In this document: positions 7,658 through 64,000 of the stretch, in pieces
How positions within the stretch are numbered: the first letter of the stretch is position 1
Layout of the letters: each line of letters opens with the position of its first letter
Virus record (IMG/VR): IMGVR_UViG_3300047476_001812
Span: 15,925 to 79,924 of that record
From: a virus
DNA length: 64,000 bases
Strand: one strand, 5' to 3'
The notes under the pieces: generated by a model
Told to the model about the DNA's origin: nothing
The model's database searches: none
Seen by the model: only the letters and a program-made list of their open reading frames with translations
Program-made: the position numbers and the translations under genes

Positions 7658-7742
7658 TCGTTTATTTTGCTAGTTAAAAGTCCTGTTATAATTTAATTAT
7701 AACAGGACTTATTTTGTTCATCACAGTTAGTAAAGCGTTAGC

Positions 7743-10204: not shown

Positions 10205-13200
10205 TTAGTATTTGTTTACCACGCCTTGCTGCTGCCTCCTGTCTTCATCCTGTTGTCTACGGGCGTTAGCAGCTAACCCTAACCACACAGCACCCAGTGT
10301 AGCAGGAATAGCCCATTTAGGAATCTTCATACCACCTGTTATTTTAACTTCAGGGTCTATGGGATTATTGAAAGATTGAGTTCCAGGGGTTCTAGGGGTT
10401 CTAACTTGTTGAGGTTCTGACTGAACCCCTTGCTGTACGTTGGTTTTAGCTTGAGGGGGTATGTAATCCCCAGGAATAGAACCACCATCAAATCCCATAC
10501 CTCCTGAGTCATTAGTAATAGGCATATCCCATATTCCATAGTCAGCATTGCCACCACTTCCGTATTGATAGTTCTCGGAACTGCTGGGAACTATATTAAT
10601 TACCTGATTGCCTGCGGGTACAAATTGTTGAATCACTTTTGACGGATTTGGAATATAATCCCCAGGAATAGAACCACCATCAAACCCCATGCCTCCCAAC
10701 ATACTTTCAGGGTTTCCCATGTAGTCTTCAACAAACTTTACTCTACCTAATTTAGCAACATTAGAAGTGGGAACTGTAGGTAGTTCAACTTTTTGTCGTG
10801 TGCGGTAAGCAGGTAGTAGTCTAGCATTTTGCATAGACCTAATTTGCCGTTCACTAAAATCACCACTTTCTATGGCATCCTGAATATCTTGTGGATGATA
10901 AAGCCTGGATTCATTTAACTCCTGTGCTTGTTCATAGGGTAAATATGTATTAGGTAAACTACCAGTAACGGAAGCAGTTAACTTTTCATCAGGATTATTT
11001 TTATACCTAAAAGAATCGTCTTCAGTCTGCATTCCCAAAGTATTTGCGGCAGAAATAAATGCGTTTAATTGTTGTGGATTCCCTTGTCTTTTGATTACAA
11101 CTTCAGGGGAGTCTTCAATGTTAACTATTGCGTTATGTGCTGCACTAGCACGGTTAATTTCTTCTGCTAAATAGTCAGAGTATTCTTGTAAATCTCTAGG
11201 ACGAGTAGACTGAACAGGAGCTATATCTTTTGTGTTCAATAAAACATCAGAAGCGTTAGGCTGATAATTTCTTATAAACTCAACCCTTTTCGCATCAGAT
11301 AGTGGCAAGATTTCTGGGTTAATACTAAAAGACCTGTCTTGACCAAGGGTTGTATAGTTCCCATCAATAAATGAACTTATTTTTCCATCTAGATTATTAG
11401 CAACTCTCTGTTGTGGAGAGTCTATCAATAAATCTATTTGTGCTTTTTGCTGTAAAGCCCTAAGCCTGTCAATATCAGTCCTTGCCTCTTGTGCTTCTTT
11501 ACCTAGTACATAGGACTTGTATTTTAGAACTTCAATATCACTTTGAGGTTTAGCTACTTGACGTTGTTTTCTGTTACTGATTACTGCATCAATCTGATTT
11601 TTCTTCTGTTGAGTTCTATTAATAGCTCCAAGGATGTCTGTTGGCTCTTCATAACCAGCATTGTAAACTTCTTTCTGATTTAAAATTGCCTTATCATCAG
11701 GACTAATGTAATCATCAGGATTAAAGCTTAGATTGCCACTGATAGCTTGTTCTACTATCCATTCAGGAGTAGGTTCAGATATTCTTGCACCTGCTTTAAA
11801 TGGTAAGTCTATCCTTGCTGCTCTACCTTGACTCCTAGTCTCAGCCATTGCATAATTCCCACCAGCAACAGGATTAAATTCGGCTACAGTAGCTTGTGGG
11901 GTTACATCATAATATTTCCCATCAATTAATATTTTGGCGTTAGCCAAAGCATTATCTCTAGCAAGATTAGGGTTAACATTTGCCCAAGCTTGTATAGCGT
12001 CATCGCTAAAACCTTTTAATTCTAATTCCTCACGTTTGCTTTTAGGTAAATAATTAGTAGTGGCATTATCTAAGTTAAGTGGAACGTAAGCGAATGTGTT
12101 AGCATCCTTCCCTTGAACCTTTCTACCAGATTCTGTAGTGTAGATTTTATCGTCTTTCAGAAAGCCTTGTTCTCCTCCAGCCAATATAGTTCTAGGGGTA
12201 ATAGTTACCGGAAGGTAAGCCCCATCAATTACACCTTGGGGAATTACGCCAGGAATATTTTCTTTCCAGAATGTTAAGTCAGGGCTATCATCATAAGTTG
12301 CTAAGTCTAAATATTGAGTATATTGTGGACTCTCAACACCTGCTGTTCTACTAGGAGTAATAGTGTACTTTCTATCAAATGCAGGTTTAGATTCTCCCTT
12401 CTTTGCTATCTTAATTAAGGCATCAACCTCATCACCACCAAGAACTGCTAATGGTTGTGCAAATAATTCATCAACTTTAGCCCTCTTTTCTTCGGGTGTA
12501 AAAGAACTATCTGCAAGTATAGACTGTCTTTGTTGAACCAAGAAAGGGATTTGCCGCCTCGCCACTTGTGCGGCAATTGCCGCTTGAGTTCTGGGGTTAG
12601 ACTCATCAAGAACCCTAGCTAAACCCACACCTTTGGGTAAAGGGATTTGGTAACTGCTATTTAACCCCACTGTTCTGCTATTAAAGATGGGATTTAATAA
12701 TCCTTTCCTGTCTGCCTCCTCATAACTCATACCATCGGGAATAGGCTGATAGTCAGGAGTTGTACCTTTAAAGTCCCGTACCATTAAGCGAGGTCGAGAT
12801 ACAGATGACTCTATAAATAAAGGGTCGTCATTCTCGTCTAAAACAAGAAATGGATGTGCTTCTCCTCCCCGCATATAGCCTAGTTCATTTATATCTCTTT
12901 CTCGCTGAAAGTTTGCTATTTGTGCTGACCTTGGGAGGGTTAATGGGTTTCCGTATAACGGCGTTAACACTTCTTGAGGAAATCCATACTCATTGGGAAT
13001 TGGTGTTCCGTACTCATTTACCTTATAAGCACCCAAAGGAGTTTCAGGATTGGTTTTAAATCTGTAGAATTTAGTGTTGGTAAAATCTCCAAGGTAGTTA
13101 GCATTGACACCAAATACATCTACAGTTCCAGGCTCATAACCTTCAATTGTTTGTTGCCGTGAAACTTGTAAATTTGCAGGAGTATAAACTGTAGGAGGAT

Positions 13201-16060
13201 TGGGGTTACCAGACTCAGGAACATCAGCTACACTTCTTGACCTTTGATTTAATGATAGGTTTTGCTTTTCCCCATAAATAGGTCTGTTTACTTGGTAAGT
13301 TCCGGTTTTCTGATACCTATCTTCTTTATAAGGAACTACTGCAAAGTTACCATTATCAAGTCCTGTGTTACCCGTTCTAATGTAAACAGTTCTGTTAGGG
13401 TCATAGATAACTTTTCCAGTTCGTGTATCCCTAACAGTTTGTGGGGAATTAGAATAAAACTCACTTGCTGGAGTAAAGTTATTTATACCTTTTGCGGCTG
13501 GAGCATTGCTAGGAACATCAACAACAATTCCATCAGTATTAAAAGCTAATCTGCCACCAAGATAATCTGTTTCTTGAAGTGATGGATATGCAGATGTGGC
13601 ATTGGTATCTTGATATCCTGTAGGTGCAGAAACTGTTATAGAATTCCCAGAATTAAATATTGTAGTTTCTCCTCTTTCTGGAACAAAATTTCTTCTGAGT
13701 TGCAAGTTTCCAGCAGCATCATAATCCAGATAAGGTGAAATATTCATATTAGCAGGTGCTTTTCTAACTTCAGCAGTTCTTCTGCCACCTCTAGCTAAAT
13801 CAAGAGCATCCATTGATTGTCCACTACTTTCGGCATTAGCGTTAAAGTAGTTGAATAAATCTTGTGGGTTATTATCGTCTACCCACTTTCTAGCAACAGG
13901 CTTAAAAGCATTCCTGCTTGCTTCCCCAAGCAATTGAACATTAGGAGGTTTGGGAGTTCCCATTCTTTTATCCCAAATCTCAATAAAATTGTCAGTAGGA
14001 ATTGGATTTCCTTCTTTGTCTAAAACAGCGTATTGACTGTAATCAACCCTAGGTTCAATAGCTTCAGGTTGTAAAGTTTCTGGATTAACTAAATTCCCGG
14101 TGTGAACATATTTATTAATTGTCTCACCTGTAATTGGATTAATAGCAGGAACAGGTCTAGTAAATGCTTCTAACCCTGGATTAGTAGGGTCTTCCCTGAT
14201 AATGTCAACTAAGTTATCTCTACCACCTTCTCTCATCGCTCGGTTAATGTCAGTTATTTCCTGAGCAAGATTAGTAGTTTGTTTTCTAATAGGTAGCCCA
14301 CCAGACTCCTCACTTACTGCGGGTCTTACTAAATAAAACCCACCATTTTGAGTAACATTAAAAACCTCTTTTGTTAGAGGATTCATGTAAGTAGCACGGT
14401 AGTTTTTTCCTTGATTATCTGTAGTCTCATAGAGTTTTATATTATCTCTATTAAAACTATCCATGTTACTAGCAGGAATGAACTTAGTTTGAGCAGCTTG
14501 ATTAATATAATTATTGTATTGCTCAGGACTAATTAGTTGACGTTTAACTGCATCCTCAAAGGTAACTAATTCATTACCAAGACCATCAACTCTAGGAATA
14601 GAAATACTTGGGATTGCATTGCCTTCTTTGTCACCTGTATAAACAATAGTAGTTGGAGTTCCCCTGCCTTTACTAAACACCCTCTGATTAGTTTCTTTAT
14701 CTATCCAAGTATTAGGTAGTTTAATAGAACCAGCATTATTTAAGAACCCACCTTGTCCTATCCTGGACATTACTTCTGGAGAGTATTCTTGTCCTACCCC
14801 TGCTATTGTTGGTGCTATGCCAATAGTTCTAGGATAGGGAACTGAATTGTCTCTATTAGCAATGTAACTAGCAGTACCAAAAAACCTACCTTCACCATCA
14901 GTTATTTGATTACCTACTTCTTGCTGTTGTTGAATATAGGCTCTTTCTTTGTCTCTATTCCATTGTCTATCAATTAAATATTGTCTAGCTTGTGGAGAGA
15001 GATTAGTGTACTCAGCTAAAGTGGAATTATTTTTAATAGCTAAAGGTGCGTGCCATTTATATTGGCTATTATTATTGCTCGACAATGGTGTTGATTGGTA
15101 AGACACTCCTGGAGTAGTAGGAGTAAATTGATTACCTTGTTGAATAAAAAAGTTGCTATCACCTGCAAATTCAGGGTTTTGATTGACTTCAAATCCTATA
15201 CTTGATTGTATTGATGGTACAGGAATAAAATTACTTTGTTCACCTTGAATTAAATTAGGAATTTCTAATTTAGTAGGAATAGTTCTACCACCGCTAATCA
15301 ACTTTTGAGTAACGCCAGTGGCAGGGTTAAAAACTAACCCTCTGTTATAGTCATAAACTAAACCAGTTAGCAAATCTGTTTTAATACCAACTGGTTTAGG
15401 TATAGGAATATTCGGAATATTTGCAGTTCTATTTTCTCTATCTTCTAATACATTGAACTGATATTTCTCACCTTGTGCTTTAGGCGTTTGAATCCCAGCA
15501 GTTCTATTAGTATTTACAGGAACAACGGTAGGATTAACACCTGAATCCTCACCCCTTATAAACGCTAACGCCCATCTCTCATAATCATTTCTTGGTTGCC
15601 AATTAGAGTCTTGTGCAATAGCATTCTGGACACCTGCTATATCTAACGGTGCTTGTGAAGCTCCAGTGCTTTTTTGACTAACCGCTGATGGGATATAAGC
15701 TGAATCATCTAATAAATCGTAATTAAAATCGTCATAACTTCCAGGAGCAGCATCGTAGATTCCATCATCAAAGTTAGTATAGTTGCCAACGTTAGCTGTT
15801 CTGGGTTCTTGAGATTGTTGAACTTCTGGACTAACGTACCTACCTAAACTACTAAGTACGGCTTCTTGAGTAGCATTCATAGCAGGGCTAGTTACAGCTT
15901 TGGCTAATCTATCTGCTACAATTCTTTTTTTATCTTGTTCAGTTTGCCCCTGTCTAAACATAAAGTTTCCACCAACTAAATCAGGGAATGATTGGTTGAT
16001 GAAAGCATTTAATTGTCCAGGAGTCATCTGAGATACTAAATACTCAATTTCATTATTCAT
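10205..16060 (-). CDS. 1951-aa protein, probable internal virion/ejection protein with C-terminal hydrophobic segment
   Basis: Long uninterrupted N/Q/P-rich ORF; C-terminal WAIPATLGAVWLGLAA; duplicated GGMGFDGGSIPGDYIP; function inferred only. Confidence 0.6.
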   Translation of the reverse strand: MNNEIEYLVSQMTPGQLNAFINQSFPDLVGGNFMFRQGQTEQDKKRIVADRLAKAVTSPAMNATQEAVLSSLGRYVSPEVQQSQEPRTANVGNYTNFDDGIYDAAPGSYDDFNYDLLDDSAYIPSAVSQKSTGASQAPLDIAGVQNAIAQDSNWQPRNDYERWALAFIRGEDSGVNPTVVPVNTNRTAGIQTPKAQGEKYQFNVLEDRENRTANIPNIPIPKPVGIKTDLLTGLVYDYNRGLVFNPATGVTQKLISGGRTIPTKLEIPNLIQGEQSNFIPVPSIQSSIGFEVNQNPEFAGDSNFFIQQGNQFTPTTPGVSYQSTPLSSNNNSQYKWHAPLAIKNNSTLAEYTNLSPQARQYLIDRQWNRDKERAYIQQQQEVGNQITDGEGRFFGTASYIANRDNSVPYPRTIGIAPTIAGVGQEYSPEVMSRIGQGGFLNNAGSIKLPNTWIDKETNQRVFSKGRGTPTTIVYTGDKEGNAIPSISIPRVDGLGNELVTFEDAVKRQLISPEQYNNYINQAAQTKFIPASNMDSFNRDNIKLYETTDNQGKNYRATYMNPLTKEVFNVTQNGGFYLVRPAVSEESGGLPIRKQTTNLAQEITDINRAMREGGRDNLVDIIREDPTNPGLEAFTRPVPAINPITGETINKYVHTGNLVNPETLQPEAIEPRVDYSQYAVLDKEGNPIPTDNFIEIWDKRMGTPKPPNVQLLGEASRNAFKPVARKWVDDNNPQDLFNYFNANAESSGQSMDALDLARGGRRTAEVRKAPANMNISPYLDYDAAGNLQLRRNFVPERGETTIFNSGNSITVSAPTGYQDTNATSAYPSLQETDYLGGRLAFNTDGIVVDVPSNAPAAKGINNFTPASEFYSNSPQTVRDTRTGKVIYDPNRTVYIRTGNTGLDNGNFAVVPYKEDRYQKTGTYQVNRPIYGEKQNLSLNQRSRSVADVPESGNPNPPTVYTPANLQVSRQQTIEGYEPGTVDVFGVNANYLGDFTNTKFYRFKTNPETPLGAYKVNEYGTPIPNEYGFPQEVLTPLYGNPLTLPRSAQIANFQRERDINELGYMRGGEAHPFLVLDENDDPLFIESSVSRPRLMVRDFKGTTPDYQPIPDGMSYEEADRKGLLNPIFNSRTVGLNSSYQIPLPKGVGLARVLDESNPRTQAAIAAQVARRQIPFLVQQRQSILADSSFTPEEKRAKVDELFAQPLAVLGGDEVDALIKIAKKGESKPAFDRKYTITPSRTAGVESPQYTQYLDLATYDDSPDLTFWKENIPGVIPQGVIDGAYLPVTITPRTILAGGEQGFLKDDKIYTTESGRKVQGKDANTFAYVPLNLDNATTNYLPKSKREELELKGFSDDAIQAWANVNPNLARDNALANAKILIDGKYYDVTPQATVAEFNPVAGGNYAMAETRSQGRAARIDLPFKAGARISEPTPEWIVEQAISGNLSFNPDDYISPDDKAILNQKEVYNAGYEEPTDILGAINRTQQKKNQIDAVISNRKQRQVAKPQSDIEVLKYKSYVLGKEAQEARTDIDRLRALQQKAQIDLLIDSPQQRVANNLDGKISSFIDGNYTTLGQDRSFSINPEILPLSDAKRVEFIRNYQPNASDVLLNTKDIAPVQSTRPRDLQEYSDYLAEEINRASAAHNAIVNIEDSPEVVIKRQGNPQQLNAFISAANTLGMQTEDDSFRYKNNPDEKLTASVTGSLPNTYLPYEQAQELNESRLYHPQDIQDAIESGDFSERQIRSMQNARLLPAYRTRQKVELPTVPTSNVAKLGRVKFVEDYMGNPESMLGGMGFDGGSIPGDYIPNPSKVIQQFVPAGNQVINIVPSSSENYQYGSGGNADYGIWDMPITNDSGGMGFDGGSIPGDYIPPQAKTNVQQGVQSEPQQVRTPRTPGTQSFNNPIDPEVKITGGMKIPKWAIPATLGAVWLGLAANARRQQDEDRRQQQGVVNKY
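10464..10696. repeat. two ~41-bp imperfect direct repeats in the giant ORF (10464-10504, 10656-10696)
   Basis: TAATCCCCAGGAATAGAACCACCATCAAA.CCCAT.CCTCC twice. Confidence 0.85.
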
Positions 16061-16302: not shown

Positions 16303-18729
16303 CTACTTCACAACGTAAGCTTCGTTGTAACTTGGATGTCCTACGTTATTAAATCTTGTGTGAAGATGAACCGTAATTTCATCTCCTAATTTAATAGGTG
16401 GCGTGTCCTTAACTGGGACTACACCAATGCTATAGCCATTGGACTTAGCAATGAAGTAATGCTTGCCGTCATTACCAATGCCTGACTCAATCTTCATGAC
16501 AATAGCCTCACCTTTGAAGACTATTTCACGAAAATCTGAATATAGCCGTCCTACTATATTCAGTTTGTCAATTTTGAGAGTCTTAAGTTGTTCACATATC
16601 TGTTCTATACCTAATAGAAAACAGATATTAGTTGAGATGCCTACCCTGTCCTCATGCTCCTTTGCTTGAGGATTGGGAATCCCCGTTTTGTTGTTCCGGT
16701 GTTTGACATCCCAAAAGGCAGCCACAGCCATCATCCTCTGTGTAGGGGGTAAATGATTAAGTATTCCCTCATAGTATCTGCAGATATCTTTTTGAGAAGA
16801 TAACCTACGCTCTTTAATAATTCTGGGAACTCTCTTACCTGGATTATCTTCTTCCCACTTGCGCTGCTCTAATCCAGCAGCATACATGGCAGATGAGTAT
16901 TCGGAAGACACGACTTCTGCCCTCTCAATCCATTTCTTACTAGGATTGAGATGTGAGAAAAGAATGTTAAAAGGTCTGAGATTGGTAGCCTTAAGTTCTG
17001 GGTAAACCCAAAACTTATTTATTTCAGCTACAAGCAGTCCTACGGTATCATTAGGACGTGATGACATCTGGGATGACATATAGCAGTCGTCATTTTTGAC
17101 CTGCTTCAACCAATCAACTCTTTCAGACTTGAGAGCATTACCGATATCATCTAGCAACTTCCTGTTAGGTGGTGTAGCACCTTTGAGGGAGTCTACTGCC
17201 GCTTGCAGCTGCGGCACTAACTGAAATACAAAGTCCTCACGTTTACAAGCCCAGGATTTGGCTATGTAGTATGTGATAAGACCAGTCAAGTTTTCCATTG
17301 ACTTAACCAGGATTTGCCCTAGAGTCCCTTCAATGGGAATCTTCTTAGGTTTTAACCCTGCTTGGTCTAAGTCAGGTTCACCGAAGTTCTTGACTGCCTG
17401 AGCTACGTTAGGTAGAGTTGATGCAGGTAGCCACATAAGGAAATCCCCATCTGTGTCACGCCCCAGTTTCATTAAGGTATTGCAGTTACCTACAATAATC
17501 CCCTCCATCTGCTCCCATTTAGGCAAGACTTTATTTGTCCATACCTTAATATCATATTTCCATCTACAAGGATAGGGGAATACGATTACCTCTTCACCGT
17601 CAGGAAGTCCTGGGATATAACAGCAGTCATCTGGCAACTCCTCGTCTGGCATTACCATAGAGGAGTTAAATTTCATCCCACCAGATGTAGCTATCTCGCG
17701 CCACCGTCGGGATAGCATTCCCATAGTTGCCTTGATAACCCAAGGGTGGGTAGACAACTGACCGTGTACGTCAGACTTTAAAATCTGACTTAACCGAGAT
17801 TCACTAACCTCACTAAACTCCTCGCTTTCATCCCCTTTCCGCAGGAGATACGCTAACAATTTCTGAGGATTGTTGACTAAGATATTTAACTCCTGTGCTC
17901 TCATTTGCGCTACGGGAACTATATCTTTCTGTACACAATCCCAAGGAAGGAACTGTACTACTGAGTATGAAAGATTGGACTTACGGAAGTCCCACCCCAT
18001 TGCATACCGTTCAATAATCTCGGTATCAGTCTCTTCGACCTCAATAAGTCTGGACTTTCTAGACGGAGATTTAAACACCACACCAAAAGCCAATTTAGGA
18101 AGTGTATACTCCCCAGGTTTAACTTTATTGCCTTTGAAACAGGACGTAGGTAAAACAAGGTCATACTTACCTTTCTTAAACCCCACTGCAATTGTACCCT
18201 TTGCACACCAATCAGGGTACATATTGAAAGCCCTAAACTGGAATGGATTGAATATGGAATCCACAAACTCCATAGCAAACTTCTCAGAGCATTTCCCGTG
18301 GCAATCCCCAGTCCTATATTTCTTGGACTTGGCATCACCGTCATTAACAACTAAGAGTTTGATGGCAATATCCTTAATCAACTTACATTCAGTAGTCAGG
18401 TTAGAACCGTAGTTGGCAGCATTCATATTGCTACCAAAGAATCGAGTAAAGCAATTAAGTTCTGAGGTAGAATAGATTGCTTTACCTTCTTTCCTAGAGC
18501 CTGAACCACCAACTAATACATAGTCTTCAAAGCCTTTGTCAAGAACTTCAGAGATGTATTCTAAGTCAGGATTTTCATCAGCTAATAAACTACCCACATC
18601 ACCGATAGCAAACTTAACGTCAGGGAATAGATGCCCCAACATCGTATTGTGATATGTGCTTTGGCAATGCTCTGGTAGCCACTGTTGACTAACTAGGTCG
18701 TATTGCCTTAGAATAAGCTTAGATGGCAT
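16303..18729 (-). CDS. single-subunit two-barrel RNA polymerase, YonO / cellular RdRP (QDE-1)-like
   Basis: Ordered motifs GDCHGKCS, PFQFR...AKGT, LVLPTSCFKG, VIVFPYPC, catalytic GRDTDGDF, LTGLIT, QAAVDSLKG parallel the cellular RdRP motifs DGxGxIS, FQIR..KG, RNP, DxDGD, AVDxxKxG. Confidence 0.85.
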   Translation of the reverse strand: MPSKLILRQYDLVSQQWLPEHCQSTYHNTMLGHLFPDVKFAIGDVGSLLADENPDLEYISEVLDKGFEDYVLVGGSGSRKEGKAIYSTSELNCFTRFFGSNMNAANYGSNLTTECKLIKDIAIKLLVVNDGDAKSKKYRTGDCHGKCSEKFAMEFVDSIFNPFQFRAFNMYPDWCAKGTIAVGFKKGKYDLVLPTSCFKGNKVKPGEYTLPKLAFGVVFKSPSRKSRLIEVEETDTEIIERYAMGWDFRKSNLSYSVVQFLPWDCVQKDIVPVAQMRAQELNILVNNPQKLLAYLLRKGDESEEFSEVSESRLSQILKSDVHGQLSTHPWVIKATMGMLSRRWREIATSGGMKFNSSMVMPDEELPDDCCYIPGLPDGEEVIVFPYPCRWKYDIKVWTNKVLPKWEQMEGIIVGNCNTLMKLGRDTDGDFLMWLPASTLPNVAQAVKNFGEPDLDQAGLKPKKIPIEGTLGQILVKSMENLTGLITYYIAKSWACKREDFVFQLVPQLQAAVDSLKGATPPNRKLLDDIGNALKSERVDWLKQVKNDDCYMSSQMSSRPNDTVGLLVAEINKFWVYPELKATNLRPFNILFSHLNPSKKWIERAEVVSSEYSSAMYAAGLEQRKWEEDNPGKRVPRIIKERRLSSQKDICRYYEGILNHLPPTQRMMAVAAFWDVKHRNNKTGIPNPQAKEHEDRVGISTNICFLLGIEQICEQLKTLKIDKLNIVGRLYSDFREIVFKGEAIVMKIESGIGNDGKHYFIAKSNGYSIGVVPVKDTPPIKLGDEITVHLHTRFNNVGHPSYNEAYVVK

Positions 18730-18756: not shown

Positions 18757-18874
18757 AAAACCCCCTAGTAGACAGCGACCAAACTAACTACTAAGGGGTT
18801 TTTGTTTAAATCTGCACGAAGTGAACATAAAAATAACTCACTTCAATTCAACCTAAGTCAAATCAAAGTGAGTT
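18757..18874 (-). promoter_or_regulatory. two stem-loops in the leader of the RNA polymerase gene
   Basis: AAAACCCCCTAGTAG...CTACTAAGGGGTTTT (~18757-18803) and AACTCACTT...AAGTGAGTT (~18835-18874). Confidence 0.55.
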
Positions 18875-18913
18875 AGTTCAATCCTATTTAGGCGTTAGCC
18901 TATTGATTCTGCA

Positions 18914-22362: not shown

Positions 22363-24324
22363 ATGACATTTAGGATACCAACACTTACATCTGCTGATGA
22401 CGTTGCTGTATGGTTGAGTGGGGCAAAACAACAGCTTGATGATTACTTTGTTCAGCTACCCGCTTCTCATTATGATGAGTTTTTCTCGCATCTTCCTGCC
22501 GCTGAACAATTAGTAGAAGCACAGGCAATGAGAAATGCAGAACAAAAAAACTATTTGCTAGAAATAGAAAGACAAGCTAAAAGATTTGGGTACAAACCAG
22601 AAAGAAGAAGAGTTGAAGAAGCAGTATCAGGTGGTGACATAGATACGGAATTTGTTCCTGAAAATGCTCCAGTTAATTCTCAAGCACGTTCTGCTAAAGC
22701 TCCTCAAGGTGCAATCCGAATTGAAGGTGATATTTTTATGCCTTTAGAAGAAGAGCAAGCAATGAGAGAGCAGTTCAGAGGAAAAGGAAATGCTTTCTTT
22801 GATGAATTAAAAAAGAGAGGGTTAATTCAAGTATTAACTCCTGAAGGAAATAGGGTAGTTCCAAAGAAGTATGCAATTTTTGATGAAACACTAGGAGAAA
22901 GAGGTAGGTATACTCTCAAGCCTGAAGTCCAATCGTATTTAGAATCCAGGAAAGTCAATACTCCTCAAGGTGTAGTAAGTCAACCCATTGCTGAAACCCC
23001 TCTTGTACAATCGTCTCCTCTTCCCAATAATGCTGAATCCGAAGCAACCTTAAATGATTTAGATAATCTCTTTTTAAACTCACAAACTCAACCTACCCCC
23101 CAAGAAGTTCCGGGAACTGTAACAACTATCTCTACAGATAATGGGGCAATTGCCCCAGACGTTGTGAGCGTATTATCAACACAGCCGGGGTTTAGTGTAG
23201 TTCCAGAACCCGTATCTTATAGCCCACTACCCATACCAGAAGGAACTCCTGAGAGTGGTATTAATCGTAGTGTTTACCCTGGAAGTAAAGCTGTATCTAC
23301 TTCTTCCGGTATTCCTATGAGTGGAGGTGGTGGGAGTATTCCCCCTAAACCCCCCACAGGTGGTGGTAACTATGACTTTGATGGGGAAGAGTTTAACCGT
23401 CAGAATAACTACACTCCTTACGGTGGCACACCCAACCATCCAGAAATACCAGGATTAAATGACCCTGTAGATGCTGACGCAAATCTTAAATGGTTATGGG
23501 AAAGAAATCAACGAGAAACGCAAGCCCGTCAACAATATCTAAACGACAAGGCAAGACAAGTGGCTGATACTGGTAGTTGGTGGGGGAATGTATGGGATGG
23601 AGTTGGTAGAGGTTTTAATTATTCTGTTGAAGCTGGCAGAATGCCTGGTAGAACGGCATCTGTAATATGGAATCGCGCACCTAAAAAAGAATATGAACAT
23701 CTTACTCCTGAAGGTAAAGCAGCTTTTTTTGGTGGCAGGGTTGCTGGAGAAATAGGTAATGGAACTAAACAAGTATTATGGGAACTACATCCTGATGACT
23801 TTACCGCTACCCATTCTGTAAGAGCAGTTAGAGAGTCCGGTGGTAATCGTATAGCTCAAGTTTTGATACCTTATATGACAACAACCGCATTGCAGCTAGG
23901 GTCACAAACCTATAACCCATTTAACCTGGGTGAAGGCGGTAGGGTTGCAGGATATCAAGCTATTAATCCTGATGAGGATGACCCACGTATTTCTACATCA
24001 CCAGTGAGTGAGTTATTAATTGACAGAGGATTGTTAGGTAGAAGAGGTAAGCTACTTCCTTGGGAGCAATTTAGACAAGAAAGAACTGATATCCCCTATG
24101 AACAGTATCAGAAGTATCAAGACTATTTACGTAATAAAGATGATAACTTCCTAAGAGATGCTACCGGGGGACTAATTAAGGGGACTATGGATGGAATTAA
24201 TGGACCAGAGTTGTCAGTGATGGGTTATTCTGTCACACCTACTGGGGCGTTAGCCGCCGGGGCTGCACTGTTAGCGGGTAGGGAATTAGTTAGAACAGGA
24301 AGAATAGCAGGGTTAAGGAAGTAA
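22363..24324 (+). CDS. probable virion (internal) protein
   Basis: 653 aa, Pro/Gly-rich linker, C-terminal hydrophobic helix; first of a coupled gene run. Confidence 0.55.
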   Translation: MTFRIPTLTSADDVAVWLSGAKQQLDDYFVQLPASHYDEFFSHLPAAEQLVEAQAMRNAEQKNYLLEIERQAKRFGYKPERRRVEEAVSGGDIDTEFVPENAPVNSQARSAKAPQGAIRIEGDIFMPLEEEQAMREQFRGKGNAFFDELKKRGLIQVLTPEGNRVVPKKYAIFDETLGERGRYTLKPEVQSYLESRKVNTPQGVVSQPIAETPLVQSSPLPNNAESEATLNDLDNLFLNSQTQPTPQEVPGTVTTISTDNGAIAPDVVSVLSTQPGFSVVPEPVSYSPLPIPEGTPESGINRSVYPGSKAVSTSSGIPMSGGGGSIPPKPPTGGGNYDFDGEEFNRQNNYTPYGGTPNHPEIPGLNDPVDADANLKWLWERNQRETQARQQYLNDKARQVADTGSWWGNVWDGVGRGFNYSVEAGRMPGRTASVIWNRAPKKEYEHLTPEGKAAFFGGRVAGEIGNGTKQVLWELHPDDFTATHSVRAVRESGGNRIAQVLIPYMTTTALQLGSQTYNPFNLGEGGRVAGYQAINPDEDDPRISTSPVSELLIDRGLLGRRGKLLPWEQFRQERTDIPYEQYQKYQDYLRNKDDNFLRDATGGLIKGTMDGINGPELSVMGYSVTPTGALAAGAALLAGRELVRTGRIAGLRK

Positions 24325-47994: not shown

Positions 47995-48332
47995 AGCAAA
48001 TAGCTAACTTTGTTCCTTTAACTCCACAACAGCAATCTGCAATGGGGTGGGGTTCAGTGCAAGGTAGCTACAGTAGAAGTAAATCTAACAAAGCTAACTG
48101 GGAATCCTACATTCTAGACAAAGAGATTATTAACTCAAGAAATTACGATTCCCGATTTGGTGATGATGTCCAAGAATACGGCATTACTCCTACTGTAGAT
48201 TATGATAGTCTTTTACAAATCATAGAAGAAACAGGAGGATTGGGTAATTTAAGTCGAGCTAGGAGTGACGCTAGAGACAAAATGGATATTATTCACAATC
48301 GTGTCCACAGAAGATAAATAAACAAAAATAAA

Positions 48333-48361
48333 TCCCTTAATCGCAAGGAACGATTAAGGGA
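48333..48361. terminator. stem-loop upstream of the capsid gene
   Basis: TCCCTTAATCG-CAAGGAA-CGATTAAGGGA. Confidence 0.55.
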
Positions 48362-48420
48362 CTAAGCCTGTAAACAACTATATCTAAATCTTATATTTCC
48401 TATGAGGTTATTAAAAACAA

Positions 48421-51400
48421 ATGGCTTTTATTGATGCAGATTTTCCCATTCTTTTAGGACAAGAACTGTATCGCCCTGATGCTAAATACATTATGAAATA
48501 CATTACTCGACCACGGGTAAAACATGATTTCATGAAGCAGCCGGGTGAATAGTCGCCCCGTAGAGTTGTGAAACTCTAATGAAAATTCCGTGAACTGCTG
48601 GAAACCTCTCACTCTTTTTTATCTGTCAAAAGAGAAGGCTTAAAACACTACAACGCAACTGGTAACAGTAATCGTGATAGTTTGAAAAGTTTTAAGTATC
48701 GGGCAATCAGCATCCAAGGGACTCCGGAAGGAGTTCAAGGTTCAACGACTAGGGTACGGAGTCTAGAACAGACGGTAAAACCCCAAGAGCGCGGAACTAC
48801 TGAACCTTGAAAACTAAATACTAAGCAATTAAGTGGAAGCTAAAAGTTTTCTGACTGTATATCTAGCGAGTTTTCTTTGCAAAACAATTGAAGGGTTACA
48901 ACCGTACATCCAGTCAAGACCTTTGATGCCATGAAAAGAAAGCCTGTAAATGCTTTTGTTAGGACGGACTGAACCGGTGGTTATACCATTTCTGTGTAGA
49001 CAATCAGCAACACTTTCCAGTAATTCTTTATTCCCTGAAAGCGTACTGCTGGTGTCATTCTTGGAAATAGTGCCGTCACCATCCCACATCCCCCTAAGCA
49101 GATGACATTCTAATTCAGAATCTATTTTTGGTAGAGAGACAATATTGATTTTAGGTGTTGACAATCCTAAATTTAAAAGGTCTTGGCAGAGAACAGTGGA
49201 GTTTAGATTTAAGTTAACGACATCATGCACTTGACAGCTGTTTTCTTGGGGTTTACTGATTAGCAATTCACCCTCAAAATCCATAGCTTCTGCTATTTCT
49301 CGAAGTATGTAAGAATCAGATTCAGTTAAGCTTATTCTTGCTCTGTGCAACTCTTTGGTAATGTGTCCATCTGTAATCATCAAACCAAGAGCATAGGCTT
49401 TAACCTCTGAATCTATGTTTTGAAAAAACCTTTCATTGAAAAAGATTTTACGGTTGCTGACATTAGGAACACCTTTTACCCCAACGGTTATTCCATGTTT
49501 TTCCGCAAAACTTTTAACACCCAGCTTTCTGCGATAATAACCGGCGTTGTTTTTACCAATTCCAAATTGTTCCCCTATTTGTAAATCGGTAAATTCATTT
49601 GTAAGGTTGTCAAAATCGGCAAAAGAAAGTTCTGTGATTTCCATGCTTAGTATTTGTGATTATTCAGTAGAAGATATAGTCTGTAAGTGCCAATGACAAA
49701 GGCATCACCGCTATCCAGGCGTTAGCCGTAATCTAATTATAAACCTAATTGGATTATATAGCAACCTATAGGACAACATTCAGTTAGACAGATACGCATT
49801 CTGGCAAACCCCTGAAGCTGGCTTCAATAAAGCTGCACGTCAACGGGGTGCTACTCAGGTAATTGGTGTAAACAACTCTCGGAATATCACCAAAGATAAA
49901 GTGATATTAACTCTCGAAGAGTATACTGGACCAGCCGACCCAACCAATCCTGAAAGTCCATCTACTTTCCAGATTCCTATCAAAGACATCATGACTGCCC
50001 AGCGCCAACTATGGCAATACGGGCAACGTGCGTTTCACGATAGTATTGGTAGTTCTAACCTTCTCCAGGACTTCCGTAAATGGGAAGACCGTCTATATAC
50101 CAACGAGTTATTGAAGACAACTTTTATTTACAATCCACGGGGTATTGCCGATGGTGCAACGGTCAACCTAACTCAAGCTGACTTTGGATTTAACGGACAG
50201 CCACCTCAATTTAATGTCAATGACTTAGAGACCGTAGTAGCAGATTTGTTTACCCGTAACTGCCCACAGTTTGAAGATGGTAACTATGTTTGCGCTTGTT
50301 CTGCTATCTTTATCAAACACTTGAGAAGTGATAGCAAGTTCCTAGAGATTACCCGATACTACGCTAGTAACCCCAGCTTAGTTCCGGCATCTGCCATGAC
50401 TAACGGTGCTGCTGGTAGTTTTGCTCCTCCCCAAATAAACTTCAATGCCGCTCCTTGGCAATCTGGTTTAACTGGTGGACAAGCAAACGATGTAATGGGT
50501 CAAGTAATGATGCCTAAAAATAATGTAGTTAGACTCACAAGAATTTCTTGCAAATCTAACTAAGCCTAGTGGGCATCTAAAACGGGATGAATTGCTGGAA
50601 ACCCGCCAAGCCAAGGGCAATCAGCAGCCAAGCCAAGAGAAATCCGTAGAAGTATCTTGGAAGGTTCAACGACTAATGGGTGAACAGGATAAGTAATAAG
50701 CCCAACACGAGCGTCCCGGCATCAGAACCTTGACAACCAAATACTTGCTTCATTTAACTTCCTGGGAATTGCTATTGTGCAGTTGGAGTAAAGCCACTCA
50801 ATTACGGGTTTAGCTTTATCAACGCCGTAACACCCAAAAGTGTAGAGAGGTTTTCCGTTATTGACCGACTCTTTTACTTTTGACGGATAGCCTAGACGAG
50901 ACTCCACAAGTTCTGCAAAACCATAGATTAAATCTTTAGTCGCTGACTGCAAGATAAAACGGTTTTTATCAAAACTTATATGCCCGTCTCCATCAAAAAA
51001 TCCTCTCAAGTAATGTCGGGTTAATTCAGTAGACAAGTTACGAACAAGTAAACGCTCTGATTTTCTCCCAAAACCCAAAGCCACCATTTGTTCAATTAAA
51101 TCTCTGCTGTATATTTCAAGTCTTTCAGTTGGAGATTTGCCTTCCCTGTGGATTTGTTTTATGTAACGGTCACATTCTGAAGCACCAGCAACAGACTTAC
51201 AGATTGTGTGCAAAACAATTGAGTCTGGGTGTTTTAGTTCAATCGTAAACTTTCTATGTTTTATGGTGTTACATATAGAACCATCTGCCGTCAAAAGTCC
51301 TAATGCGTAAGCCTTAATCTCGGAGTCAATACTTTGAAAATAAGTTCTATCAATCTGAAGCTTATCAAAGTATTCACCTTCACCTTGATTAAGAACCCTG

Positions 51401-51984
51401 CCAGATTTACGAGATATGCGCTTGCCAGTCTTTTCACTAAAAGACTTAATGCCAAGCTCTTTACGGGCTATGTGGACAGTAGAAACGGCACAGCCATACT
51501 GCTTGGCAATAGCAATATCCGACAACTCAGAAGTTAAATTATCGAGTGTTTGTTGGTCAAATAAAACGGTTCTTTGGAACTGCATAGGTTTTGATGTGTG
51601 ATATAGTCTGACCTCAATCAATGGAAAAGATTGAGAACTAGAAGGTAAACTACTTCTAGGATAACATAAGTGATGGGTTTTGTTTTTGACGGCGTAAGGT
51701 TCTTTGCCTCTAACAACTTACCTAAAGCACAGGTTACACTTAATTACACCAACTCTGTTAACACTACTAATGCACCTAATGGTAATGCAGTTAGAACTGG
51801 AGAACTGGGAATCTTCTATGGGGCTGAAGCTATTGGGGTTGGATTAGGTGGTAATGGACCAGAAATTCTACTTAATAACAACGACGATTTTCAACGTTTT
51901 GTGATAGCGATTTGGAGATTATATGGAAGCTGGGAATTACTAGACGCTAGATTTGTAACTACTTGCCGTTCTTTCACAAACTAA
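48421..51984 (+). CDS. major capsid protein, spliced: 48421-48546 + 49772-50515 + 51673-51984 (393 aa)
   Basis: Exons join in frame as ...HDFMKQPG|DNIQLDRY... and ...GQVMMP|MGFVFDGVRF...; HK97-fold-like motifs (YVCACS..FIKHLRSD, DGVRFF, DDFQR); follows portal and scaffold. Confidence 0.85.
48547..49771 (+). ncRNA. group I intron 1 in the capsid gene
   Basis: 5' splice after U with P1 GGGU/GCCC; P GAACTGCTGGAAA, Q AATCAGCA, R GTTCAACGACTA, S AAGATATAGTC; P3 TTCCGTG/CGCGGAA; P8 CTACTGAA/TTCAGTAG; terminal G at 49771. Confidence 0.92.
48829..49644 (-). CDS. LAGLIDADG homing endonuclease, antisense in the P8 loop of intron 1
   Basis: KAYALGLMITDGHI and HLLRGMWDGDGTI. Confidence 0.9.
   Translation of the reverse strand: MEITELSFADFDNLTNEFTDLQIGEQFGIGKNNAGYYRRKLGVKSFAEKHGITVGVKGVPNVSNRKIFFNERFFQNIDSEVKAYALGLMITDGHITKELHRARISLTESDSYILREIAEAMDFEGELLISKPQENSCQVHDVVNLNLNSTVLCQDLLNLGLSTPKINIVSLPKIDSELECHLLRGMWDGDGTISKNDTSSTLSGNKELLESVADCLHRNGITTGSVRPNKSIYRLSFHGIKGLDWMYGCNPSIVLQRKLARYTVRKLLAST
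50516..51672 (+). ncRNA. group I intron 2 in the capsid gene
   Basis: P1 AUGCCU/GGGCAU; P AATTGCTGGAAA, Q AATCAGCAG, R GTTCAACGACTA, S TGATATAGTC; P3 CGGGATG/CGTCCCG; terminal G at 51672. Confidence 0.92.
50722..51585 (-). CDS. LAGLIDADG homing endonuclease, antisense in the P8 loop of intron 2
   Basis: KAYALGLLTADGSI and HYLRGFFDGDGHI; ATG 51585 preferred over TTG 51621; related to the intron 1 enzyme. Confidence 0.9.
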   Translation of the reverse strand: MQFQRTVLFDQQTLDNLTSELSDIAIAKQYGCAVSTVHIARKELGIKSFSEKTGKRISRKSGRVLNQGEGEYFDKLQIDRTYFQSIDSEIKAYALGLLTADGSICNTIKHRKFTIELKHPDSIVLHTICKSVAGASECDRYIKQIHREGKSPTERLEIYSRDLIEQMVALGFGRKSERLLVRNLSTELTRHYLRGFFDGDGHISFDKNRFILQSATKDLIYGFAELVESRLGYPSKVKESVNNGKPLYTFGCYGVDKAKPVIEWLYSNCTIAIPRKLNEASIWLSRF

Positions 51985-52119: not shown

Positions 52120-52548
52120 TTATTCCTCAATAATTTCTTCTACAACAGGTGCTATGCCAAGGTTTAAATCTTCTTGTTCTGACTGAATATGAGACCCTGC
52201 CATAACAGTTACTCCCTCTACATGGCCAAAGACTTCCTCAAATGAGCAAATCCTACCTTTAGGAGCATTGGATAATTTAAGAACTTCACTTTCCTTTCTT
52301 CTAACAGGTCTACCTTTTTGACCCTTTTTAACTACTAACAATTCCCTATAACGGGGCTTTTTAGTAGAAGGTAATGTAATTGGCATATACCCTTTACATA
52401 AGCTGTGTTCTTTTTCGGGATTAAAAACTTCGTAACCACCCACAAAATAAGTTTTACCATCTCGGTTCATTAGAAGAATTACAGCTTCCCCAGGTTTCCA
52501 CCTTGGAGGAATGTAGTCTAAATCCAGTTCAGATTTTTTCTTAACCAT
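52120..52548 (-). CDS. hypothetical protein (antisense cassette)
   Basis: Motif C at 52577 and hairpin motif 52651-52672 upstream. Confidence 0.65.
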   Translation of the reverse strand: MVKKKSELDLDYIPPRWKPGEAVILLMNRDGKTYFVGGYEVFNPEKEHSLCKGYMPITLPSTKKPRYRELLVVKKGQKGRPVRRKESEVLKLSNAPKGRICSFEEVFGHVEGVTVMAGSHIQSEQEDLNLGIAPVVEEIIEE

Positions 52549-52696
52549 ATTTTGCAGACGCTTTGCTTACTGCTCCGTTTATTTTGCTAGGAAAACTAAG
52601 TTCCAACTATTAGTTTACCAGAGCAGTTTTGCTGTTATAGCTTTTAGCTTTCACCAACACCGGGGCAATCGCCCCTTTATTTGAGAGGATAGTTGA

Positions 52697-63934: not shown

Positions 63935-64000
63935 TTGAATACTCCACTAATTTATTTACATCATCACTACTAGTGCGTTAGCCCTTACTAGGAATATTAT

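Follow-up and report, generated by a model that had tools for sequence, protein, structure and literature searches.

We analysed a 64-kb stretch (hereafter, the window) of the 79.9-kb IMG/VR virus record IMGVR_UViG_3300047476_001812, a cyanophage in which the major capsid gene is interrupted by two group I introns, each of which carries a nuclease gene on the strand opposite to the capsid gene. The first of these introns (intron 1) contains, upstream of its homing endonuclease gene (HE1), a complete copy of a hairpin motif, here termed class B, that recurs in front of many minus-strand genes of the phage. We consider the chances about even that this copy is the promoter of HE1 and is read by an 808-amino-acid (aa) polymerase encoded by the phage itself; the promoter role, the reader enzyme, the start site, and the timing are what we infer from the observations described below. 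The fuller account, in which the intron acquired the template-strand hairpin promoter of a QDE-1/YonO-like polymerase in a dispensable linker of its ribozyme, with HE1 switched on alongside the non-structural genes and off during expression of the capsid gene, seems to us slightly short of even.

The intron 1 copy occupies positions 49705..49729 on the minus strand and reads 5'-cGGCTAACGCC-tggatagcg-GTGA in the sense orientation, with a predicted start of transcription at approximately 49700-49708. Written on the plus strand, it consists of TCAC (49705-49708), 10 nucleotides (nt), and GCGTTAGC (49719-49726), agreeing with the family at all 12 fixed bases and in the exact N10 spacing. The first T of TCAC lies 60–61 nt upstream of the HE1 ATG (49644) in non-coding intron sequence, and the copy is oriented towards HE1, in the same manner as other copies upstream of minus-strand genes. 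A preliminary description of this DNA had reported a complete motif in the P9 region, approximately 60 nt upstream of HE1 and facing it; these statements were borne out, and the motif could be placed between P9 and P9.1. The 17-kb block of plus-strand structural genes contained no other exact copy, and this one fell within a 127-nt non-coding stretch directly 5' of HE1. Its leave-one-out matrix score was 22.9 bits, corresponding to rank 31 of the 159,738 genome positions.

In the 79.9-kb genome, TCAC-N10-GCGTTAGC occurred in 21 exact copies in the forward orientation and in none in the reverse orientation. When up to two mismatches were allowed, 32 matches were found in the window, compared with 2.0 expected, and none of 100 shuffles yielded as many. 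The copies written in this way on the plus strand sit upstream of minus-strand genes and are mostly intergenic, although coding sequence makes up 88% of the genome; 18 of the 27 copies with at most one mismatch and a measurable distance were located 18–63 nt upstream of the start of a minus-strand open reading frame (ORF), where approximately 5% of positions would fall by chance according to simple arithmetic. The consensus of the sense (minus) strand spans approximately 30 nt and reads aaGGCTAACGCCTtA.TaGT.GTGA.GtAA. The family hairpin has a 4-nt loop (TAAC, or GTTA on the template strand) and stems of 3–6 base pairs (bp), and the stem covaries (score of 0.254 versus 0.099 in shuffled alignments, reached by 0 of 500), with GC, AU, UA, and CG pairs at the outer positions. 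A loop variant, GGGGC-GATT-GCCCC, followed by GTGA in the N10 geometry, is present at 52650-52675 (minus sense) within the structural block, approximately 100 nt 5' of the gene at 52120..52548 on the minus strand. Beyond this record, the motif was present in two close relatives (G001 and G002) and in a contig of 43.5 kb whose sample of origin also yielded the intron-less contig L008 described below, and absent from the freshwater Synechococcus phage S-EIV1, which is the sole relative among deposited phages (aa identities of 38 and 43% for the portal and capsid proteins, respectively).

The presumed reader of the motif is encoded at 16303..18729 on the minus strand. This 808-aa protein had no match among PDB chains or in Pfam when searched by sequence only, and its assignment as a two-barrel (QDE-1/YonO-like) RNA polymerase is based on a fold search, on an invariant DxDGD loop (D425, D427, G428, and D429), and on matches of 4 of its 26 homologues to the Pfam family RdRP (PF05183). 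The AlphaFold2 model had a mean predicted local distance difference test (pLDDT) score of 85.8, and Foldseek matched it to QDE-1 (2j7n, E = 1.5e-14), the plant polymerase RDR2 (E = 6e-14), the Thermus phage polymerases P74 gp62 (E = 6e-9) and P32 gp64 (E = 1.1e-8), and the virion RNA polymerase of the crAss-like phage phi14:2 (E = 5e-5). In a comparison of four genomes, three of which are close kin, G001 and G002 possessed both the motif and the polymerase (87% identity), and S-EIV1 possessed neither. Since the phage has a polymerase of its own, and since conserved motifs upstream of genes act as promoters for related two-barrel polymerases of phages (PMC10770324), a phage-specific promoter is the most economical reading of the class B family. 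The promoter of another such enzyme, YonO of SPbeta, is still undefined (PMC5467207).

HE1 (48829..49644, minus strand) encodes a double-motif LAGLIDADG homing endonuclease of 271 aa and lies antisense within the P8 loop of intron 1, as had been read from the sequence and as was supported here by fold prediction and by matches to the Pfam family LAGLIDADG_3 (PF14528, E = 9.7e-12) and to PHROG 4645 (endonuclease, E = 5e-33). Its two LAGLIDADG motifs are LGLMITDGHI and LRGMWDGDGTI, and an alignment showed D92/G93 and D188/D190/G191 to be invariant among 16 homologues. The gene is bracketed exactly by a 12-nt inverted repeat, the right arm of which begins at the A of the ATG and the left arm of which ends one base short of the stop codon. 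On the capsid strand, each of the three frames across HE1 is interrupted by 10–21 stops, leaving no long open frame. Because HE1 is antisense, transcription of the capsid gene cannot yield its mRNA. HE1 is probably active, or was until recently, in that the ORF is intact, the catalytic residues are retained, all four nucleotide differences from the only other intron-bearing contig (L003) are synonymous, and the intron is absent from near-identical phages. If so, some minus-strand promoter is needed now or was needed recently. Simple read-through from further upstream is made less likely by a minus-strand terminator-like hairpin with a T run (50562-50526) between HE1 and the nuclease gene of the second intron (HE2).

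HE2 (50722..51585, minus strand) is likewise antisense in the P8 of intron 2, belongs to PHROG 4645, and is 32% identical to HE1; its likely start is the ATG at 51585, compared with the TTG at 51621 given in the ORF list. The terminator-like structure (50526-50562, tail to 50516) occupies the P2 position of intron 2 and is a hairpin of 17 bp, with CATTATTTTT after it when the minus strand is read, approximately 160 nt past the HE2 stop codon; a ribozyme helix of intron 2 may thus double as the terminator of the antisense HE2 mRNA.

Intron 1 spans 1225 nt (48547..49771, plus strand), and its borders were set by a U-G pair at the 5' splice site (U48546 with a G in P1), a terminal G49771, and the joint 48546>49772 seen in RNA-library contigs. 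The 5' half (48541-48797) aligned with positions 5–158 of the Rfam model RF00028 at 32.8 bits (E = 3.9e-6; the gathering score is 50), and the core shared 87% identity with introns of Bacillus SPO1-like phages across 95 nt. Intron 2 spans 1157 nt (50516..51672, plus strand; 39.9 bits, E = 2.9e-8; joint 50515>51673). A scan of the whole window at the gathering threshold gave no match, and both halves surfaced in E-value mode only; the 5' halves score below the threshold because a long insert, which in intron 1 is the 816-nt ORF, splits the model. P7/P7' and P8 of intron 1 were assigned by eye and by fold. The P8 arms are AAATACTAAGCA (48816..48827) and TGCTTAGTATTT (49644..49655); both were read directly from the sequence and pair in the fold of the ORF-deleted intron, and the 3' arm overlaps the A of the HE1 ATG. 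The P7 3' strand TAGTC (49677..49681) has GACTA (48747-48751) as its partner, and the block GATATAGTCTG of this strand recurs in intron 2 (51600-51610) and in an ORF-less intron of the relative L005. All of these elements are on the plus strand, as are the next two hairpins, which were taken from the minimum-free-energy fold: P9, GTGCC-aatgacaaa-GGCAT (49688..49705), and P9.1, AATCTAATT-ataaacc-TAATTGGATT (49731..49755).

Metatranscriptome (RNA-library) contigs from three studies show the joints 48546>49772 and 50515>51673, the former skipping exactly 1225 nt. The joined exons 1 (48421..48546, 42 codons, ending at the U of the P1 U-G pair in the Rfam alignment), 2 (49772..50515; a match to PHROG 1357, the major head protein, with E = 4e-7, and 43% identical to S-EIV1 at the aa level), and 3 (51673..51984, delimited by the RNA-library contig joint and the spliced ORF), all on the plus strand, form a continuous ORF of 393 aa. 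The contig from one RNA run (X1), a lake metatranscriptome, matched the window without a single mismatch across 981 nt, a region in which the intron-less relatives differ by 1.3–3.2%, and X1 also contained intron 2 sequence; genuine splicing of this genotype is therefore likely. The joints in the other two runs (X2 and X3, approximately 95% identical) may stem from intron-less phages, and only X1 was therefore counted towards splicing. The contig depth in run X1 was 2.1 in the HE1 region, 12.8 in intron 2, and 22.4 in the exons, values that were not used as a measure of expression since contig depth cannot rank the parts of a gene.

A comparison with the sister introns located the motif within the ribozyme. 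Intron 2 and the L005 intron have hairpins of differing sequence at the position equivalent to P9, directly followed by equivalents of P9.1, and the gap between the two hairpins amounts to 1–3 nt in these introns versus approximately 24 nt, made up by the motif, in intron 1. The motif segment therefore looks like an acquired insertion, as judged from this comparison. It occupies the first position upstream of HE1 that is outside P8, J8/7, P7, and P9, and only the T of TCAC overlaps the P9 3' strand. The preliminary description had proposed that the same bases double as ribozyme structure; this proposal was not supported, because the remainder of the motif is a linker that has no counterpart in the sister introns, save for a possible small hairpin in a predicted three-way junction. 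That hairpin belongs to the reading in which the segment is a peripheral P9 sub-domain of the ribozyme and its likeness to the motif is coincidental, which is highly improbable: in the minimum-free-energy fold, GCTAT (49711-15) does pair with ATAGC (49759-63) and closes a three-way junction with the mini-hairpin GGC-GTTA-GCC and P9.1, but the segment is entirely missing from both sister introns, and a 12/12 match at fixed spacing to a motif with 21 genome copies is not expected by chance.

Under the promoter reading, intron 1 is a mobile group I intron whose P8 loop contains HE1 in the antisense orientation, and the copy in its peripheral P9-P9.1 linker, outside the catalytic core, would be a phage gene-start signal (GGC-TAAC-GCC, a spacer, and GTGA in the sense orientation). 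The 808-aa polymerase would recognise this signal as it is presumed to do at approximately 25 other minus-strand genes, and the antisense transcript would begin at approximately 49700-49708, with a leader of about 60 nt complementary to P9, P7', and P8' preceding the HE1 ORF. HE1 would thereby be placed in the expression class of the non-structural minus-strand genes, apart from the plus-strand capsid operon, and its separate antisense expression would keep ribosomes off the ribozyme strand. The association of the motif with non-structural minus-strand genes further suggests that HE1 may be made earlier than the capsid mRNA.

Several observations weigh against this reading. The intron 1 copy is a weak member of its family, being 23rd of 27 by matrix score; its stem comprises only 3 bp (G-G-C/G-C-C), as against the 4 bp or more looked for in a family member, and its pair 7-18 is C/T, one of three that are unpaired among 22 copies. 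The same stem defect occurs in copy 4022, in which two of the four TCAC bases differ, and in the intragenic copy 24233. No Shine-Dalgarno sequence precedes the HE1 ATG, while many other motif-led genes have one. The motif scan of the window gave no class B match upstream of HE2; the motif is therefore no requirement for such antisense nucleases. The copy is identical in L003, the sole intron-bearing contig for comparison, which makes the comparison a narrow one at a divergence of only 0.7%, and the RNA evidence consists of assembled Logan contigs, which carry neither strand nor end information. At 18875-18834, 9813-9786, and 7678-7710, strong hairpins, with or without a T run, stand between the motif and the gene, and the motif may have an RNA-level role as a transcribed element. 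Finally, two sigma70-like sites flank the motif on the minus strand, namely TTGCTA-17-TATAAT at 49764-49736 (10 of 12 matches) and, just downstream, TTGTCA-17-TATCTT at 49699-49671.

The first of these sites is the basis of an alternative in which HE1 is transcribed from 49764-49736 with a start at approximately 49729 and class B belongs to the transcribed 5' leader, where its hairpin might stabilise or regulate the RNA or mark a site of processing. The 10/12 match includes a perfect TATAAT, the predicted start coincides with the 5' edge of the hairpin, and covariation of the stem is as compatible with a hairpin in RNA as with one in DNA. However, sigma70-like sites in this AT-rich region are at the level of shuffled sequence (7 versus 10.0 expected), and the remaining 26 copies show no conserved -10 element before the hairpin, the information content being 0.1–0.3 bits per position upstream of the stem; sigma70-like promoters therefore do not serve the class B family in general. 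We regard this alternative as unlikely, if the least so of those considered.

Marginally less probable still is that the intron 1 copy is decaying or hitch-hiking, with little or no function and perhaps gained by recombination, and that HE1 is weakly expressed by other means or silent. The low matrix score and the 3-bp stem would agree with decay, and HE2 manages without the motif; moreover, at least one exact copy, that at 24233, lies in a plus-strand gene with no minus-strand gene nearby, so non-functional copies exist. On the other hand, all 12 high-information bases, the 10-nt spacing, and the orientation are kept in the intron 1 copy, which stands at a typical distance from the only nearby minus-strand ORF. 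The gene map allows a rough calculation, in which a lone exact copy in the structural block would have a chance of about 2% of being located within 100 nt upstream of one of the approximately three minus-strand ORFs there. The identity of the copy in the second intron-bearing contig also argues against decay, although the genome is only 0.7% diverged. As regards the earlier proposal that the intron captured a phage signal, the part that stands is that the copy is a true member of a lineage-specific family and occupies some 24 nt in excess of the sister introns; its weakness, its short stem, and the lack of a motif at HE2 leave the proposal only partly upheld.

The introns are polymorphic within this lineage and probably recent. 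Both introns were absent from the DNA of five IMG/VR contigs with 98–99% exon identity and of one further contig (L008) with 86–90% identity, and presence or absence at an exact site among near-identical phages is a signature of recent homing. Introns 1 and 2 were found together in one other contig only, L003, which is 99.3% identical and has no change in either ribozyme core. A different, ORF-less group I intron of 265 nt is present instead in four of the intron-less relatives (L004–L007), 247 nt into exon 3 (4992-5256 in L005, equivalent to 51919/51920 in the window); in L005 it passes the Rfam gathering threshold with 53.4 bits. The capsid gene of this lineage thus has at least three intron sites, each of which is polymorphic. 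At exon 2 position 49777, six nucleotides from the intron 1 site, a single synonymous difference separates the intron-less allele (GACAAT) from the intron-bearing allele (GACAAC), and this difference could be a mark of co-conversion or of immunity to cleavage. A search for T4-like autorepression, in which the homing site AAGCAGCCGGGT|GACAAT was compared by eye with the motif region, yielded a likeness (AGC.GG.TGA) that requires gaps and was dropped.

Homologues of HE1 with 50–95% identity occur in Logan, ENA, and JGI assemblies. Scans of viral, metagenome, and genome contigs with the HE alignment recovered the near-identical contig and distant relatives of 26–34% identity and nothing else, and a motif-pattern scan of viral contigs recovered mostly single chance matches together with contigs of the same lineage, none of which had a further homing endonuclease gene. 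An unrelated JGI metagenome contig (L015) contains at 320-1403 a group I intron (33.3 bits over the full Rfam model) with a distant relative of HE1 and HE2 (27–29% identity) on the opposite strand; this family of nucleases thus shows the antisense arrangement more than once.

Intron nucleases with promoters of their own and antisense nucleases in capsid introns are already known. The endonucleases of T4 introns have promoters inside the intron (PMC2988022), and HE1 would resemble them in being a group I intron nuclease gene with an intron-internal promoter of a phage class, in the uncoupling of its timing from that of the interrupted gene, and in a lessened conflict between ORF expression and ribozyme folding. 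The T4 ORFs, in contrast, are in the sense orientation, with experimentally mapped promoters directly before the ORF in the looped-out region that are served by the host polymerase and phage factors, whereas here the ORF is antisense, the candidate hairpin signal is placed in a peripheral linker past P7' and P9, and the presumed enzyme is a two-barrel polymerase. In mycobacteriophage LittleE, the major capsid gene has an intron with a bottom-strand LAGLIDADG-type gene, gp14 (Pope et al. 2013, PMC3706429). The two cases share a capsid group I intron, an oppositely transcribed gene of LAGLIDADG type, and splicing observed at the RNA level; they differ in that gp14 is I-CreI-like and has 177 aa, while HE1 has 271 aa, a double motif, and an extra N-terminal domain, in that LittleE has one intron rather than two, and in that no promoter was proposed for gp14 (PMC3706429). 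Among eukaryotes, the introns Dir.S956-2 and Dsq.L2066 of Didymium nuclear rDNA hold antisense His-Cys box endonuclease genes (PMC9548176). There, too, the nuclease gene is located in a peripheral helix, and a separate internal promoter is presumed that is read by a polymerase other than that of the host gene (PMC9548176). The Didymium system differs in its use of Pol I versus Pol II, in polyadenylation and spliceosomal introns, in the nuclease family, and in that the promoter sequence is undefined.

The virion polymerase of coliphage N4 is a T7-like enzyme that uses hairpin promoters on the template strand, with 3-nt loops and stems of 5–7 bp. The class B hairpin, with its 4-nt loop and 3–6-bp stem, and the QDE-1/YonO fold of the 808-aa protein are outside the N4 type, and the comparison is an analogy only. 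What the present phage has in common with N4, with P23-45 gp96/gp64 (PMC10770324), and with SPbeta YonO (PMC5467207) is a non-canonical phage polymerase together with a conserved motif of 20–30 nt upstream of many genes; unlike here, no hairpin was reported for the P23-45 motifs in PMC10770324. What is new in the present case is the kind of signal, that is, a lineage-specific hairpin motif that is tied to a two-barrel phage polymerase and inserted in a peripheral linker of a ribozyme. If the promoter reading is true, this would be the first intron-borne promoter for such a polymerase and a clean case of a selfish intron adopting the private transcription signal of its phage rather than one of host type, with the antisense nuclease timed apart from the late structural gene and the ribozyme core untouched. 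Comprising one motif and one gene inside a plus-strand operon, intron 1 would also provide an isolated test case and a natural single-copy reporter for this promoter class, which bears on how QDE-1/YonO-like phage polymerases find their promoters, a question still open for YonO (PMC5467207).

Other hairpins and features were observed in the window. A 14-bp hairpin with a T run that is terminator-like on the minus strand only is present at 48331-48363, between two plus-strand structural genes and 58 nt 5' of the capsid ATG; it would halt antisense transcripts from HE1, and it is not specific to the intron, since the intron-less relatives carry it too. A 19-bp hairpin with TTTTTATGTT (18834-18875, minus strand) lies between the class B copy at 18878 and the start of the polymerase gene at 18729 and may be an attenuator of that gene. 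We also considered whether class B copies are regularly preceded at once by an intrinsic terminator, so that transcription would have to re-initiate; such a terminator was clear only at 39938-39920 before copy 39877, and the idea was rejected as a general rule. A second hairpin family, AACTACA-N11-(stem)GC-GTA-GC(stem)-CATAAAAA, has 14 plus-strand copies between 19443 and 42578, all of them in the small-gene block or upstream of the polymerase gene and none near the introns. A 1951-aa ORF at 10205-16060 on the minus strand had no match in Pfam or PHROG. The start of the record (genome positions of approximately 150–270) repeats the end of the window (63955-64000) with one mismatch, including a class B copy; thus, although labelled as linear and 57% complete, the record is probably a complete genome of approximately 79.7 kb, equal in size to that of S-EIV1, and circularly closed or terminally redundant.

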